DNA of 51,831 nucleotides from Patescibacteria group bacterium (GCA_018899555.1 JAHIHZ010000011.1:1-51831); one strand, 5' to 3'. Counted from the first letter of the stretch, positions 6,626-46,644 are shown. A program made the numbers and translations. Notes: a model not told the origin generated them from the letters alone.

Positions 6626-7583
6626 CGCATTACACAATGATTTCAATATATGTCAATAGTGTATGCACACCACTGGGCAAGCAGTTTTCCTGCACCCTAG
6701 CGGTTTCCATAGGTTTTCGCTTTTTTCCCTCTCTTCCTAATCTCATCACGAAGTCTAACAATTTTATTAAAACCCCTGTCTGTAAGATGTTCTTTTTTAG
6801 ACATCATTAAAACAATTTTTTTAAAAATTTTATAAACTTCCGCTTTTTTGGCTTGTAATGGATTTTTATCAAGAAAAGGGAAAAGTTTCGTTGTTAAATC
6901 TTTTAAATTATTTATCTTATATTTTGAATGAGGAAACCATCCATATCTATCATAAGACAGATCATAAATTCTTCCACACCCAATTGTTATAAGAATTCTC
7001 TCTAAAATTTTTTGATCATCGGCACGAAGTTCTATTTCAAATTCCGGTCGAATTTCAAATCTTCTTTTAAGAGTTTTATGTTTCCCTATGCTTATAGAAA
7101 AAGATCCCTCTCCGTCTATAAAACCAGAAACATAATTTGGATTTAATTTTTTCCTATGAATTTGTTCCTTCCCAATTGGTTTTTTTAACTTCTTGGTACT
7201 ATGAACTCTGCTGACTTCTTGCATAACATTTAAAAAAGATTGCTCTTTTATATACCTCGATGTTATCACACACCGAGGATTATGCAAGATCTCCTGTGGT
7301 AACTATATAGACCATTTGTTTTCATCTCGATATCACTACACGCAATATGTTTACTTTGACACAGTAGGCTTCTCCATATACTCGCAGGATGACCTACATA
7401 TTGCGCCACAGACTGATATTCAAGCTAAAAACTGCTAATTTCTCCCTTCACTGAATTTCCTCACGGAAAACAGCTGAGATTTCGCTTCAAAACACTGTGA
7501 CTTATTTTGGCCTGATTTCCAAAAACTTTTTTTAAAAAAGAAGTTGGGCACAGACTGGCTTATATAATCGCACAGCGACCCGA
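6626..7583 (-). mobile_element. 958-nt intron-like insertion in 16S between E. coli C1395 and A1396, carrying a LAGLIDADG gene; ribozyme class not assignable by eye
   Basis: Exon sequence GCCTTGTAC stops at 7584 and resumes as ATACCGCCCGTCAACTC at 6625. Joining the two restores the universal CCUUGUACA(C/U)ACCGCCCGUC. The insertion ends in G. The group I core motif seen in the other introns is absent. Confidence 0.7.
6697..7287 (-). CDS. LAGLIDADG homing endonuclease (single-motif type)
   Basis: Contains YVSGFIDGEGSFSISI. About 190 aa, located inside the rRNA insertion. Confidence 0.8.
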   Translation of the reverse strand: MHNPRCVITSRYIKEQSFLNVMQEVSRVHSTKKLKKPIGKEQIHRKKLNPNYVSGFIDGEGSFSISIGKHKTLKRRFEIRPEFEIELRADDQKILERILITIGCGRIYDLSYDRYGWFPHSKYKINNLKDLTTKLFPFLDKNPLQAKKAEVYKIFKKIVLMMSKKEHLTDRGFNKIVRLRDEIRKRGKKAKTYGNR

Positions 7584-7615
7584 GTACAAGGCTCGAGAAC
7601 GTATTCACCGCAGTA

Positions 7616-7651
<36 letters not shown>

Positions 7652-7804
7652 GGGTCGAGTTGCAGACCCCAATCCGAACTAGGACCGATTTTTAGGATTG
7701 GCTCAGGATTGCTCCGTCGCGACCTATTGTATCGGCCATTGTATTACGTGTGTAGCCCAGGGCATCAAAGGGACATGCTGACCTGGCGTCATCCTCTCCT
7801 TCCT

Positions 7805-7885
7805 CCCCTCCCTAAAAGAATTTTCAAACAAGAAGTTCGGCTTCTCAAGAGGAAGCCAAACTTCGAAAATTCACTTAGGGAGGGG
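7805..7885 (-). other. expanded 16S helix (about E. coli 1160-1175 region)
   Basis: CCCCTCCCTAAG ... CTTAGGGAGGGG encloses a second hairpin (GTTTGGCTTCCTCTTGAGAAGCCGAAC). E. coli has only about 15 nt at this position. Confidence 0.6.
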
Positions 7886-8235
7886 CAGTCTCGTCTGAAA
7901 TTTATAACAGACAACAAGGGTTGCGTTCGTTTCCCTACTTAAAGGAACAGCTCAAGCCACGAACTGACGACGGCCATGCATCACCTGCCTATCCGTTAAG
8001 ATTTTCTGTTTCTAGAAAAACATAAGATAGGTTTCAAGCCCTGGTGAGGTTCTTCGGTTAGTATCGAATTAAACCACATAATCCACCGCTTGTGCGAGCC
8101 CCCGTCTATTTCTTTGAGTTTTAACCTTGCGATCGTACTACCCAGGCGGTTCTCTTAATGCGTTAGCTTCGCCTCTCAGAGGGTCGATACTCCGAAAAGC
8201 TAGAGAACAACGTTTACGGCGTGGACTACAGGGGT

Positions 8236-8795
8236 CACTTTTGTTACGAAGTAACAAAAAAATTAAAAATGTAAAAATCAAAATGAAAAATTACAATTTA
8301 AAATTCAAAAGTTACCGGATACAACATTTCTGTGTATCTCTCTATGTCGCCATAGAGGTCGGACTATATCTTCACCCGGCACTTTCTGAAAGTGCTGGGG
8401 TTTGGCATGTAGTCTCTGAGGAGCCTTGCGTGCTATAAAATGCGGGCAACAGCACCTTTAACACACAAGTTTCCTGCTGATTGTCTGCATCGGTTTGAGA
8501 TTGTTACTATAATATATCAATAGTACTCGAACATTCGCAGAGTTTCCAGCATATAGCCAAATTACAATCTACTGTTGCCAGTAGAAGAGACACTGTTCGC
8601 ATTCTCTCACCTACTTGAGTGAGCATTTTCTTTTTTAAAACATATGCAGGAGATGAAATAAAAATCAAGGAGTCGCATAGGAAAATGAAACTGTTTGAGT
8701 CCTGCAAGGCAGGATGAGTTTTTCATTTTCCGTCATAAGACGATTATGATTTTTTTCATCGAAACATCGTTTTGAAAAAGAAGATGCGAACGTTT
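8236..8795 (-). mobile_element. group I intron in the 16S 790 loop (between U793 and A794), no ORF
   Basis: Splicing restores GGAUUAGAU|ACCCCUGUAGUCC. Core elements CCTCAGAGACTAC (P7 5' side) and GAAGATATAGTCCGAC (J8/7-P7', compare Tetrahymena AAGAUAUAGUCGGACC) are present at 8345-8425. The last intron nt is G and the last 5' exon nt is U. Confidence 0.8.
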
Positions 8796-9111
8796 ATCTA
8801 ATCCCTTTCGCTCCCCACGCTTTCGTGTTTCAGTGTCAGGAAATGTGCTAGTTTATTGCCTTCGCTTTTGGTGTTCCCCATAATATCAACGGATTTCACC
8901 CCTACACTATGAGTTCCATAAACCCCTCACACCCTCTAGTTGTACCGTTTCTTTTGCAGTTCTTCGGTTGAGCCGAATGTTTTAACAAAAGACTAATACA
9001 ACCACCTACACACCCTTTACGCCCAATGATTCCGGATAACGCTTGGGGCCTCTGTATTACCGCTCCTGCTGGCACAGAGTTAGGAGCCCCTTATTCATGA
9101 TCTGATGTCAA

Positions 9112-9230
9112 TCGCTCCGCGATTCCCACGCGGATAAACGCAGACAACAATGCGGATAGACGCGGATAAAAAATATCTGCGAAAATCTGCAAAAATATCT
9201 GCGAAAATCTGCGAAGAAATCGCAAAGCGA
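9112..9230 (-). repeat. V3-region expansion of 16S built from ATCTGCG/ATCCGCG-type repeats
   Basis: About 120 nt lie between ...GATTGAAGAAG and TTGACATCAGATCATG... The segment consists of tcgcagattttcgcagatatttttgcagattttcgcagat... and tatccgcgtctatccgc... Confidence 0.65.
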
Positions 9231-9466
9231 CTTCTTCAATCATAAAAGATCTTTACGTCCCTAAGGACTTCATCAATCACGCGATGTCGCTCCGTCAGGC
9301 TTTCGCCCATTGCGGAAGATTCTCGACTGCTGCCACCCGTAGGTGTATGGACCGTGTCGCAGTTCCACCGGTGGAGGTCAGGCTCTCACCTCTCCTAGAC
9401 GTCATAGCCTTGGTAAGCTTTTACCTTACCAACTAGCTGATATCCCGCAGGCCGATCCCAAAGCGC

Positions 9467-9518
9467 CCAGCACATATTTTGATTTTTGAACAATTTCAAA
9501 AATCAAAATATGTGCTGG
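9467..9518 (-). repeat. 52-nt near-perfect hairpin inside 16S V2
   Basis: CCAGCACATATTTTGATTTTTGAA-loop-TTCAAAAATCAAAATATGTGCTGG. Confidence 0.7.
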
Positions 9519-9532
9519 ACTTTACTCAACAC

Positions 9533-9825
9533 TTTTTTTATTTTACAAGAGATTCTTTAATTCGCTTTTTTATATATGTTCGAGCATTGCCATAATGTTT
9601 TAATCCTTTCTCCCGAGCTCTTGCATCTTCTTCGGATCTATATGATTCGCAATATACCAAAATCCACGGTATTCCAAATTTAGTTGATTGATTTATTCCA
9701 TCATTATGATGTTTAAGTCTCTCGGATAAATTTGTTGTAAATCCGAAATATAAATCTTTCGTTTTTTTGCTTTGAATCACATACACCGTATAAAGTTTCA
9801 TGAAGCTAATTATAAAATAAAAAAA
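9533..9825 (-). mobile_element. 293-nt insertion in a 16S V2 hairpin loop consisting almost only of a GIY-YIG ORF
   Basis: Bounded by an 8-bp inverted repeat, CTCAACAC (9525-9532) and GTGTTGAG (9826-9833). No group I core is visible. Confidence 0.65.
9538..9801 (-). CDS. GIY-YIG nuclease domain protein (87 aa)
   Basis: The N-terminus YTVYVIQSKKTKDLYFGFTTNLSERLKHHN is the GIY...YIG/R/E pattern of GIY-YIG domains. Confidence 0.8.
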   Translation of the reverse strand: MKLYTVYVIQSKKTKDLYFGFTTNLSERLKHHNDGINQSTKFGIPWILVYCESYRSEEDARAREKGLKHYGNARTYIKKRIKESLVK

Positions 9826-9925
9826 GTGTTGAGACTATCAGGTATTATCCCGCCTTTCGACGGATTATCCCTGACTTTGGGGGTCGTTCCTACGTGTTAC
9901 TACCTCGTTTGCCATGTTTTCTCGT

Positions 9926-10064
9926 CTACGGCGAGAACGCTGATGTTCGCAGATGGGGCTCGCTTGCGCTCGCCTTCGCAGATGTTCGCTGATATTTAAA
10001 AATTATATCTGCGTTAATCTGCGTTTTTTATCTGCGTTAATCTGCGGTCTTGTCGTAGACAAGA
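9926..10064 (-). repeat. 139-nt module expanding 16S helix 6 (V1); near-identical copy inside 23S (49169-49366)
   Basis: CTACGGCGAGAACGCTGATGTTCGCAGATGGGGCTCGCTTGCGCTCGCCTTCGCAGATGTTCGCTGATATTTAAAAATTATATCTGCGTTAATCTGCG... ...GGTCTTGTCGTAGACAAGA is shared with the 23S copy. Confidence 0.85.
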
Positions 10065-10137
10065 TACATTCGACTTGCATGCCTAATCCACATCGCCAGC
10101 GTTCATCCTGAGCTAGAATCAAACTCTAACTTAAAAA

Positions 10138-11045: not shown

Positions 11046-11159
11046 TATTTTTTATCTCAGATTTTAATAGTCGCCTTATCTCTGCTATAGCAGAGGTAAG
11101 GCGACACTTTTATTTTTTCAATGGTTAACCCCGACATCGTCGGGGTTTTTATTTTTATG

Positions 11160-11282
11160 TCCGCGTTAAGTCCGCGTTAAGTCCGCGTTAAGTCCGCGTT
11201 AAGTCCGCGTATAGTCTGCATATTTAGTCCGCAATTTGTTATCTGCGTTCATCTGCGGTTTTTTATCTGCGTTTATCTGCGA
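11160..11282. repeat. tandem 11-mer AGTCCGCGTTA (about 4.5 copies) merging into ATCTGCG-type repeats
   Basis: gtccgcgttaagtccgcgttaagtccgcgttaagtccgcgttaagtccgcgta... then atctgcgttcatctgcggttttttatctgcgtttatctgcg. Confidence 0.9.
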
Positions 11283-11299
11283 ATTTTGCGAAAGCAAAA

Positions 11300-11878
11300 T
11301 TAAAGGTATTCAAACTCTTTAAAAACCGCTTCGTATAAATCTATTATCCTACTTGCCTCTCTGTGGGTCACAACAAAACTTGAACCGCCATGGGCTATGT
11401 CATTTCTAAATTTGTGCGCCTCCCATGCTTTCTCTATTGTATTGAAATCACTTTTTTCAACTGATTTTAGTTTTTCTCCTATATTTTCCTGTGTGTGCCC
11501 TATCTTTGTTAACATCTCTCCTAAAATTATGTCTGCTTCTAATATCGCAAGTTTCCAATCATTTTCATTTGTAGATTCAATGTGTCTCATTATTTGAGCC
11601 CACCTCTGATTCGTAGGATTACCTTGAGTATCAAGAAGCGCTTTCTCTGTAAGTTCATCTAATTTTATTTTTTCTTCTTTTCTTATTTGATTTATTCTGT
11701 TAACAACATAAACAATCCCAACAAGAAGCGCCAAAGAAAAAATCGCGGCAAATATTTTATAAATCTCCCAGAATTTCAAGAAATATTCGTAAGCAATTCT
11801 GTAATGCCCCACATCAAATAAAAGAAGATAGATTAATCTAAAAATATATTCAACATTTAAAAAATCAATTGATTGCAT
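11300..11878 (-). CDS. hypothetical membrane-anchored protein
   Basis: The ORF track runs to 11908, but the first 10 codons are CACAAAT-family repeat sequence, so the start is more likely MQSIDFLN at 11878. One TM helix, then a soluble helical domain ending ...NDIAHGGSSFVVTHREASRIIDLYEAVFKEF. Confidence 0.55.
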   Translation of the reverse strand: MQSIDFLNVEYIFRLIYLLLFDVGHYRIAYEYFLKFWEIYKIFAAIFSLALLVGIVYVVNRINQIRKEEKIKLDELTEKALLDTQGNPTNQRWAQIMRHIESTNENDWKLAILEADIILGEMLTKIGHTQENIGEKLKSVEKSDFNTIEKAWEAHKFRNDIAHGGSSFVVTHREASRIIDLYEAVFKEFEYL

Positions 11879-15447: not shown

Positions 15448-15777
15448 TCAAAGTATCTTTTTTACTTTCACATATCCATCTTTTGTGTTGGGCGCTTCTT
15501 TTAATAAGTCGCCACTAAATTCCCCCGCTTCTTGTGGGTTCTTATCTTCTCTCATTACATTCCTCAAATTTTTATCTGCGCCTGCCCCCACACCAAAAAT
15601 TTTGGTGTGGGGGCCTGCCCCGTAGGAAATTTGTTTTCCTTCGGGGTTAATCTGCGATACTTGTCCAACATAGTCAAGAATTGAATTTATGTCTTTGTTT
15701 AGACCACTAAATTCTTCCTCGGATATTTCAATCCTCGCGAGTTTTGAGAGTTTTTTTAATTCTTCGCTTGAAATCAT
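15448..15777 (-). CDS. gatC: Asp/Glu-tRNA(Asn/Gln) amidotransferase subunit C
   Basis: MISSEELKKLSKLARIEISEEEFSGLNKDINSILDYVGQVSQI is typical GatC. It carries a palindromic insert at 15574-15625. Confidence 0.85.
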   Translation of the reverse strand: MISSEELKKLSKLARIEISEEEFSGLNKDINSILDYVGQVSQINPEGKQISYGAGPHTKIFGVGAGADKNLRNVMREDKNPQEAGEFSGDLLKEAPNTKDGYVKVKKIL

Positions 15778-46293: not shown

Positions 46294-46644
46294 CAATATC
46301 ATTTTTCTCCTGTTACCAGGAGGATCGGACTATATCTTCTTCCTTCTACAACAATCAAATTGTAGTGAGGAGTTGGCGTATTAATATTTCGTTTGTGAAA
46401 TACTCTCTGCTTTCGCATCAGTCTCTACGGGGTCAATCCAGCACCTAATTTTTATTAATTAATTAATAAAAATTAGGTGCTGGACGACTTCCCACGGTAT
46501 TGTCCATAATAAAAATTATATCATGGAGTTCACCGTTATAAGCCAATATTTTAATCAAAACATATTCTCCTACAAATATGTTTTTTGATTCCAGGCTATA
46601 TGATTTCTCATATCGCACCCCGATTTAAATGTAAATTTACTTTA
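46294..46644 (-). mobile_element. group I intron at L2500, ORF-less (351 nt)
   Basis: Splicing restores GGCACCU|CGAUGUCGGCUC. P1 is GCACCU with GGGUGC. Core GAAGATATAGTCCGATCC and CCCCGTAGAGACTG at 46325-46430. Confidence 0.85.

Follow-up and report, generated by a model that had tools for sequence, protein, structure and literature searches.

The 16S rRNA gene of a Patescibacteria group bacterium, a member of the candidate phyla radiation (CPR), lies on the minus strand at 7537-10134 of the stretch analyzed here (GCA_018899555.1, JAHIHZ010000011.1:1-51831, one strand of 51,831 nucleotides, hereafter the window) and carries, at the tip of a short surface hairpin in its 5' domain, a small cassette encoding a GIY-YIG nuclease. 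The rRNA gene measures 2598 nt compared with the 1533 positions of the Rfam model RF00177, which it matches from position 1 to 1533 with 1084.7 bits, and it is the single 16S match detected in the genome (625 kb, 33 contigs, 95% complete). Several insertions are present, including a group I intron at 8340-8618. In the RF00177 alignment, an insertion of 288 nt opens at model position ~188 and another one, of 48 nt, follows about 25 positions further on. The whole cassette occupies 9525-9833 (309 bp, minus strand), at the hairpin tip before the conserved UAAAG. We take the host hairpin to be helix 9 (E. coli ~184-193) and the following one, which contains a palindrome, to be helix 10, on the basis of the conserved UAAAG and of the E. 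coli and B. subtilis layout. The outermost CTC/GAG of the cassette may be the 3-bp stem of the host hairpin itself.

Read in the rRNA sense, the cassette is composed of a 5' arm, a TATAAT hexamer, an open reading frame (ORF) and a 3' arm. The 5' arm is CTCAACACTTTTTTTATTTTATAA (9810-9833, minus strand) and the 3' arm is TTGTAAAATAAAAAAAGTGTTGAG (9525-9548, minus strand), both delimited by a repeat search; they are 24 nt long and complementary at 23 of 24 positions (96%), the odd one being a U.G in RNA sense. The inverted repeat reported around the ORF in the initial annotation is thus present, but with a length of 24 nt rather than 8 bp; likewise, the segment then drawn from 9467 to 9833 holds the cassette at 9525-9833, whereas its first part takes in a separate palindrome at 9467-9518. 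The ORF (9538-9801, minus strand, the same sense as the rRNA) comprises 264 nt including the stop and encodes 87 aa, from an ATG at 9801-9799 to a TAA at 9540-9538, so that the stop and the last codons fall within the 3' arm. The cassette has just 45 nt outside the ORF, namely 32 nt before the ATG and 13 nt after the stop. The minimum free energy (MFE) fold closes the ORF with a 24-bp stem (-111 kcal/mol vs -66 +/- 5 for shuffles, z = -9), in agreement with the earlier description of the ORF as being, in effect, the loop of a hairpin at the tip of an rRNA helix. Of 300 windows of 260 nt drawn at random from the genome, 1% had an equally good bracketing repeat. A metagenome contig of 89.8 kb in ENA is identical to the window from 8038 to ~11188, so that the ORF is undisrupted in this assembly as well.

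The hexamer TATAAT (9809-9814, minus strand), noted by direct reading of the sequence, occupies the inner end of the 5' arm and precedes the ATG by 7 nt. Naming the present genome G000, its same-genus sisters G001, G002 and G003, and the homologous loci by L-numbers, a TATAAT is also found 6-13 nt before the ATG in G003, L041, L043, L051 and L052. Its role may be that of a -10 box, or it may simply mirror, as their complement, the Leu-stop codons of the opposite arm; the consensus sigma-70 promoter scan did not call it, there being no -35 box at that place.

The encoded protein matches the Pfam family GIY-YIG (PF01541) at residues 4-74, with E=7e-13 and 49 bits against a cut-off of 22.6, and possesses no further domain. 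Together with the insertion seen in the RF00177 alignment, this match confirms that a GIY-YIG gene of 264 nt is lodged inside the 16S gene. The AlphaFold (AF2) model has a pLDDT of 84 and consists of a single GIY-YIG domain, whose best fold matches in the PDB are UPF0213 BH0048 and Slx1 (TMq 0.64-0.66 to Slx1), those to I-TevI and UvrC being poorer; by sequence, too, the nearest solved relative is UPF0213 BH0048 (E=1e-3). It is a bare catalytic domain with no DNA-binding domain attached. Across 17 homologues, the residues Y7, Y18, G20, R28, H32, N33, E52, E64 and N72 are invariant, and pN (the proportion of nonsynonymous differences) is 0.17-0.32 compared with 0.63-1.0 for pS, its synonymous counterpart, the synonymous sites being saturated. 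Judged from these substitution patterns, the ORF is an intact, functional gene under purifying selection.

The insert is not an intron. The initial annotation had noticed no ribozyme scaffold around the ORF and left room for a hidden core, and the search with covariance models sustains the former: an Rfam cmscan of 9440-9860 returned no intron family at E<=10, only spurious matches of the miRNA and snoRNA type on the neighboring palindrome. Intron families are recovered elsewhere in the rRNA genes of the window, where group I and group II signals exceed the gathering threshold (RF00028 three times). Since there are 45 nt of noncoding sequence and no intron match, removal of the insert, if any, cannot be self-splicing. 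A group I intron with an I-TevI-type enzyme has a ribozyme core (P3-P9) that is missing around this ORF, and enzymes of that type bear a linker and a DNA-binding domain, whereas the cassette protein is an 87-aa catalytic domain only; TIGR01453 gives it 16.5 bits against a cut-off of 56. Introns are common in these rRNA genes, as those genuine signals attest, and a novel or undetected self-splicing intron with its core concealed in or around the ORF might be imagined for that reason; it is barely conceivable, given the empty search, the few noncoding nucleotides, and the occurrence of the cassette in non-RNA contexts and antisense to the rRNA, where splicing is meaningless.

The empty site was defined by comparison with the 16S genes of relatives, as had been proposed. 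Fifteen such genes were recovered, eleven of them from other genera of the same order, and all eleven have at the cassette site a stem of 3-4 bp with a tetraloop (CCC-UUCG-GGG or CUC-GCGA-GAG). Examples are AGTCTC-GCGA-GAGTAAAG, AGTCCC-TTCG-GGGTAAAG and AGTCCC-TTCG-GGGTAAAGATTTATCGC, and the core of the empty-site duplex is GATAGTCCCTTCGGGGTAAAG. Within the genus, four genomes present four different states. While G000 has the cassette, G001 has an insert of ~100 nt with no ORF; G002, whose downstream flank of 226 nt is 100% identical, has an unrelated perfect hairpin of 52 nt and neither the cassette nor the palindrome in the next helix; and G003 has a cassette of its own, closed by a 20-bp stem (CCAGCACTTAATTTTGTTTA / TAAACAAAATTAAGTGCTGG), whose GIY-YIG protein is 50% identical to that of G000. 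Four states in four genomes of one genus indicate that, on sequence grounds, turnover at the hairpin tip is fast relative to rRNA divergence. The comparison with G002, where an identical flank accompanies the absence of the cassette, is stronger evidence for this than the comparison with G003. As a whole, these comparisons show a cassette that caps a short surface hairpin in the 5' domain of the 16S rRNA, oriented in the rRNA sense, with a selected gene and with a presence that varies between close relatives.

The homologous cassettes found in other contexts indicate to which partner the stem belongs. They encode single-domain GIY-YIG proteins of 84-87 aa, have terminal inverted repeats of 20-24 bp and keep a constant length of 287-314 bp between ends. 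The closest public homologues, 61-76% identical, are all bracketed by (A)CCCAGCACYTTYTT.../...AARAARGTGCTGGG(T), and these ends are carried by eleven class-A homologues (protein 50-76% identical) distributed over six kinds of site. The same 16S hairpin is occupied in sense by the copies of G003, L043, L045 and L052 and in antisense to the rRNA by L048-50; L041/42 lie in 16S helix 17, L038-40 and L054 upstream of rplJ, and L051 and L055 in intergenic DNA, and a copy in the 23S gene (L065) has the related ends TCCCGCACC. Relative to the family consensus (CCCAGCAC.../...GTGCTGGG), the cassette of G000 (CTCAACAC/GTGTTGAG) differs by two changes, each compensated in the opposite arm. Since the same arms bracket genes outside rRNA and in antisense to it, and since the site of the relatives has only 3-4 bp, the stem is, by this comparative reading, the terminal inverted repeat of the cassette itself, brought along on insertion, and not an rRNA helix; to this extent the initial view of an ORF looped out of a helix of the rRNA does not hold, as the arms are not rRNA sequence.

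The breadth of sites also bears on homing. A classical free-standing homing endonuclease gene, comparable to the Seg genes of phage T4, would cut the double-stranded DNA of a cassette-free allele, the repeat being incidental. GIY-YIG is a known homing-endonuclease fold, and cassettes reside in this 16S hairpin in no fewer than six distinct lineages (G000, G003, G125/L052, L043, L045 and L048). Nevertheless, this explanation is very improbable: the protein, with its 87 aa, has no DNA-binding domain of the kind that Seg and I-TevI need and folds more like Slx1 and UPF0213, its near relatives reside in unrelated sites where the repeat and not the flank is conserved, and the rRNA region invaded is poorly conserved, and Tsurumaki et al. 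(PMC11270868) are likewise negative about homing. Separately, in the metagenome-assembled genome that holds L043, a 23S_rRNA_IVP (S23p-type) ORF lies at 1962-2345 of that locus, ~150 nt upstream of the GIY-YIG cassette (2501-2755) and in the 5' region of a 16S gene for which the Rfam match is fragmentary only.

The association of the repeat with the gene is general. A bracketing repeat with a score of at least 13 accompanies 16 of the 17 homologues from species genomes and 32 of 40 further loci of the same order, compared with 1% of random 260-nt windows, and in 16 of the 17 homologous loci the stop codon lies at or inside the right arm. The repeat classes follow the protein clades, as seen with CCCCCTCACTCGAAAAT, GCCCGGTAGTAGA, ACCCGCACACTAA and TCCCGTTAGAGA. 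When 18 elements were aligned over 24 pairs of the arms, 93% of the cells could pair, compared with 72% in shuffles and ~45% in slid controls, and 18 of the 24 pairs had changed on both sides, a count reached in 0 of 500 shuffles. It was also observed that, at pair 21/32 of alignment A2, ORF-bearing copies have the T of the left-arm TATAAT opposite the G of TTGTAA (Leu-stop), which is a U.G in sense RNA, and that the antisense copy L048 has there a C.A on the ORF strand, equivalent to a G.U on the rRNA strand.

The genome also has scattered hairpins that resemble the cassette ends and carry no gene. G000 contains eleven with CAGCAC...GTGCTG ends and perfect arms of 15 bp or longer, compared with none in 20 simulated genomes, and none of the eleven is within an ORF of at least 90 aa. 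One of them is the perfect palindrome at 9467-9518, with arms of 24 nt (CCAGCACATATTTTGATTTTTGAA / TTCAAAAATCAAAATATGTGCTGG, 100% complementary) and CCAGCAC...GTGCTGG ends, which replaces the AUUUAU of the next rRNA hairpin; it is absent from G001, G002 and G003, which read TAAAGATTTATCGC at that place, and, having the consensus ends of the cassette family, it looks like a gene-less derivative of it. Another of the eleven, inside the 23S gene, is a perfect palindrome of 46 nt with CCAGCACC ends at 46438-46483, in a block of 351 nt that G001 lacks and G002 shares with 83% identity, leaving no simple empty site. A third, a longer gene-less element of 101 nt with the same ends, is found at C23:10916-11016 (L076 617-717, minus strand), directly 5' of GGAGGAAAGTCCGAA, where helix P3 of an RNase P RNA would be expected; the RF00010 match nearby is weak and partial (25 bits). 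This form of ~100 nt is multi-copy in all three sister genomes, with 89-93% identity.

Other small repeats occur in the same genome. Four hairpins of 32-34 nt, CAGCACTTATTTT..AAAATAAGTGCTG, are found at 32670-32703 of the window and at C11:7353-7384, C16:23095-23126 and C22:3323-3354; after three of the four, TTGAC comes within 2-3 nt, giving the impression of hairpins set immediately before a -35 box. Five hairpins of 25 nt with CCCACACC ends and arms of 11-12 bp are located at 15587-15611 of the window, where the palindrome is inside gatC, and at C8:12180, C13:32363, C14:332 and C19:1238; in other genomes (L090, L094), GIY-YIG cassettes have CCCCCACACC as their repeat class. Two elements of 119 nt with CCGTTAGAG ends (C8:18521-18639 and C13:13659-13777) belong to a class that also brackets the GIY-YIG paralogue at C16:27154-27387. 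Within the 16S gene, insertions in helix 6 and helix 17 (128 nt and 108 nt, at ~9930-10060 and ~9095-9235) are formed by ATCTGCG-type repeats, which recur outside the gene at 11140-11300 and constitute a family distinct from that of the cassette.

Regarding its distribution, the protein profile has matches in 122 of the order's 151 genomes, a single genome having as many as 11 copies. About five of the 150 copies listed in this survey lie in 16S genes, all five in sense, so 16S residence appears from these counts to be a minority state of a widespread cassette; of the distinct rRNA-resident copies, ~10 of 11 are oriented in sense. G000 has five GIY-YIG genes, and three of the four other paralogues are directly 5' of tRNA genes on the same strand, namely C3:1901-2149 before tRNA-Gly(GCC), C17:7450-7680 before tRNA-Glu(CUC) and C22:893-1066 before tRNA-Cys(GCA); 7 of 40 surveyed copies from the same order have the same placement. 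At the C17 paralogue, the ORF runs into the tRNA, and upstream there is a second copy of the first 17 nt of that tRNA (1 mismatch), which an inverted-repeat insert (TCCCGATTTT...AAAATCGGGA) in turn divides behind nt 11.

This distribution could also describe a domesticated host nuclease of the YhbQ/UPF0213 type, with a role for example in repair, that resides immobile in highly transcribed operons and whose repeat is a signal for RNA processing or stability. Its prevalence and copy number, its purifying selection, its frequency before tRNA genes, its sense orientation in rRNA and its best PDB sequence match, UPF0213, are all in line with such a role. We nonetheless consider it quite unlikely. 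The positions vary, one clade being found in at least six kinds of site, and presence differs between genomes with identical rRNA flanks; sister species have gene-less hairpins and ~100-nt derivatives, with the same ends, scattered in multiple copies; and several copies in relatives carry in-frame stops. All these are hallmarks of a selfish cycle of gain and decay.

Taken together, the best explanation is probably that the locus holds one copy, at a 16S helix tip, of a family of hairpin-bounded GIY-YIG cassettes of ~300 bp, for which a behavior at the RNA level and another at the DNA level can be proposed. In the rRNA precursor, pairing of the arms would add 24 bp to the host hairpin, helix 9, and make the ORF its loop, and the position at a helix tip would leave the core of the ribosome undisturbed. 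Long duplexes with hardly a mismatch are what RNase III cleaves in the classical intervening sequences (IVSs) of rRNA, among them the 23S IVSs of Salmonella and Leptospira. The genome encodes an RNase III (233-aa ORF, PF14622 1.5e-42, C13:32699-33088). The enzyme would cut the stem, and the insert would be removed with no religation, giving a nicked but functional 16S rRNA and freeing the ORF as a stem-closed RNA. The RNase III gene, the long stem and the report that CPR rRNA insertions 'are removed from their transcripts' (PMC11270868, citing Brown et al. 2015) together favor excision with no religation, and by analogy with the classical IVSs we hold the chances of such a removal to be about even.

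A known counterpart is the IVS in helix 45 of the Coxiella burnetii 23S rRNA, with 428 nt, an S23p ORF and cleavage by RNase III (PMC4990558). As in the classical IVSs, the insert replaces the tip of a helix, has an internal ORF enclosed by a long complementary stem, is distributed sporadically among close relatives and occurs in a host with RNase III; with Coxiella there is the further likeness of a reduced genome with a single rRNA copy, and at the homologous locus L043 a 23S_rRNA_IVP ORF even accompanies the GIY-YIG ORF. Meanwhile, the cassette is located in helix 9 of the 16S rRNA with a nuclease and also occurs outside rRNA, whereas IVSs are located in helices 25 and 45 of the 23S rRNA with a protein of the S23p family.

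Instead of being removed, the insert could be retained as an expansion segment, the mature 16S rRNA having a 24-bp extension and an AU-rich loop of 260 nt that stick out from the body of the subunit; any expression of the ORF would then start at a promoter of its own. Among bacteria, the helix tip at this site varies in length, and eukaryotic 18S rRNA carries the expansion segment ES3 at helix 9. Furthermore, relatives of the same genus tolerate extensions of 52 nt and ~100 nt at this very place, TATAAT stands 7 nt before the ATG, and one homologous cassette is antisense to the rRNA, from which it follows that the gene cannot always depend on the rRNA transcript. Retention is unlikely even so, because the reported absence of CPR rRNA insertions from transcripts (PMC11270868, citing Brown 2015) speaks for removal, the long duplex is a classic RNase III substrate in a genome that encodes the enzyme, and RNases would have access to a loop so long and unstructured in a stable RNA.

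At the DNA level, the nuclease would recognize the hairpin or cruciform of its own repeat, as Ssn enzymes do on SRM hairpins and RAYT on repetitive extragenic palindromes (REPs), and this recognition would drive its copying into other small hairpins, either the cognate gene-less ones or ones similar to them. Based on these analogies, an action on its own repeat hairpin that leads to copying of the cassette seems plausible, if somewhat doubtful. Going further, the unit may be an autonomous mini mobile element, in which a bare Slx1/UPF0213-like GIY-YIG protein recognizes the extruded repeat hairpin and copies the unit into small hairpins, the tips in rRNA, in RNase P RNA and next to tRNA being tolerated sites; palindromes such as 9467-9518 would then be its offspring, similar to MITEs (miniature transposable elements with inverted repeats), and the ORF would be freed by RNase III. 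This complete scheme is tentative and, with all its parts, rather unlikely to be right as it stands.

The nearest characterized system is Ssn with its NTS/SRM repeats (Chenal et al. 2025, Nat Commun, PMC11893778), where single-domain GIY-YIG nucleases (94 aa in SsnA), flanked by hairpin repeats, cut adjacent single-stranded DNA. Both systems share a bare GIY-YIG protein of ~90 aa, a repeat on both flanks of the gene, co-variation of repeat and protein and an architecture like that of insertion sequences. However, the flanks of the cassette are the two halves of one hairpin, whereas those of Ssn genes are two self-contained hairpins; as to dispersed gene-less hairpins, a partial likeness, there are 11 here with the consensus ends of the family (0 expected) against hundreds in Ssn systems, with cassette ends that differ from those 11 at two paired positions. 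CPR and stable-RNA genes are not mentioned in that work (PMC11893778). The REP/RAYT systems (REPtrons) are similar in architecture only, having a small nuclease gene bracketed by inverted copies of a palindromic repeat that is dispersed genome-wide; their enzyme is an HUH/Y1 (IS200/IS605-like) transposase instead of a GIY-YIG nuclease, and REPs are extragenic while the cassettes reside in the tips of stable-RNA helices.

Several observations weigh against the proposed cassette and its behavior. The prevalence of 122 in 151 genomes also fits a gene of benefit to the host. In G000, the cassette ends (CTCAACAC) and those of the 11 gene-less hairpins (CCAGCAC) are unlike at two paired positions, and there is no gene-less hairpin with CTCAACAC ends. 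The SRM motif HGTCWY N0-2 YYVSBRH N0-5 WNVSBRG N0-2 RNCYNB was not found within 500 bp of any of the five GIY-YIG genes, and genome-wide it has 2 matches vs ~1 expected (0-2 in simulations), which is no enrichment; the missing motif and the flanks made of the halves of one hairpin argue, from sequence, against a simple membership of the Ssn family. As for turnover, the proteins of G000 and G003 are 50% identical while their rRNA flanks are 92-97% identical, but this contrast is in itself no proof of independent insertion, because small proteins diverge fast. It may be the way the cassette is copied, and not selection on RNA, that preserves the complementarity of the arms: among 53 distinct repeats, a strand-asymmetry test of RNA- versus DNA-level pairing gave an at best suggestive ratio of G.T to A.C mismatches of 53:34 (p = 0.053), and the repeat class CCCGGTAGTAG... 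has conserved asymmetries of both kinds (G.T and A.C). Finally, the case for a putative cleavage by RNase III consists of the length of the stem and the presence of the gene.

Part of the finding is already known, since GIY-YIG ORFs in non-intron insertions of CPR rRNA genes were described by Tsurumaki et al. (2024, J Bacteriol, PMC11270868). Those insertions share with the present one the host group, an rRNA site at the tip of a poorly conserved stem-loop, a Pfam GIY-YIG ORF, no similarity to group I or II introns and a scattered distribution; the cassette of G000, located in the rRNA gene of a CPR/Patescibacteria genome, with its Pfam GIY-YIG ORF and no intron similarity, fits this class. 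The accessible sections of that paper contain no terminal inverted repeat, no unit outside rRNA and no gene-less hairpins, and they leave the mechanism open. A literature search likewise found no paper on terminal inverted repeats, on a unit outside rRNA or on gene-less hairpins of this kind.

For annotation purposes, the 16S gene is intact and owes its 2.6 kb to inserts, and the present insert should be labeled as a GIY-YIG cassette with terminal inverted repeats, neither an intron nor an rRNA helix. The locus offers a clean case of a protein gene nested in the helix tip of a single-copy essential rRNA gene, with a defined empty site and with sister genomes in other states, for a GIY-YIG class left unexplained by the published survey of CPR rRNA insertions (PMC11270868). 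It makes testable how CPR ribosomes handle non-intron insertions, by RNase III fragmentation or by retention, as well as whether a bare GIY-YIG domain like those of Ssn/UPF0213 can mobilize the hairpin repeat that belongs to it. If the proposed mechanism is true, a considerable share of the odd helix extensions in CPR rRNA would come from one not-yet-described class of hairpin transposon or homing element, and the release by RNase III from the rRNA precursor would mean that a selfish gene is expressed from the strongest promoter of the cell.

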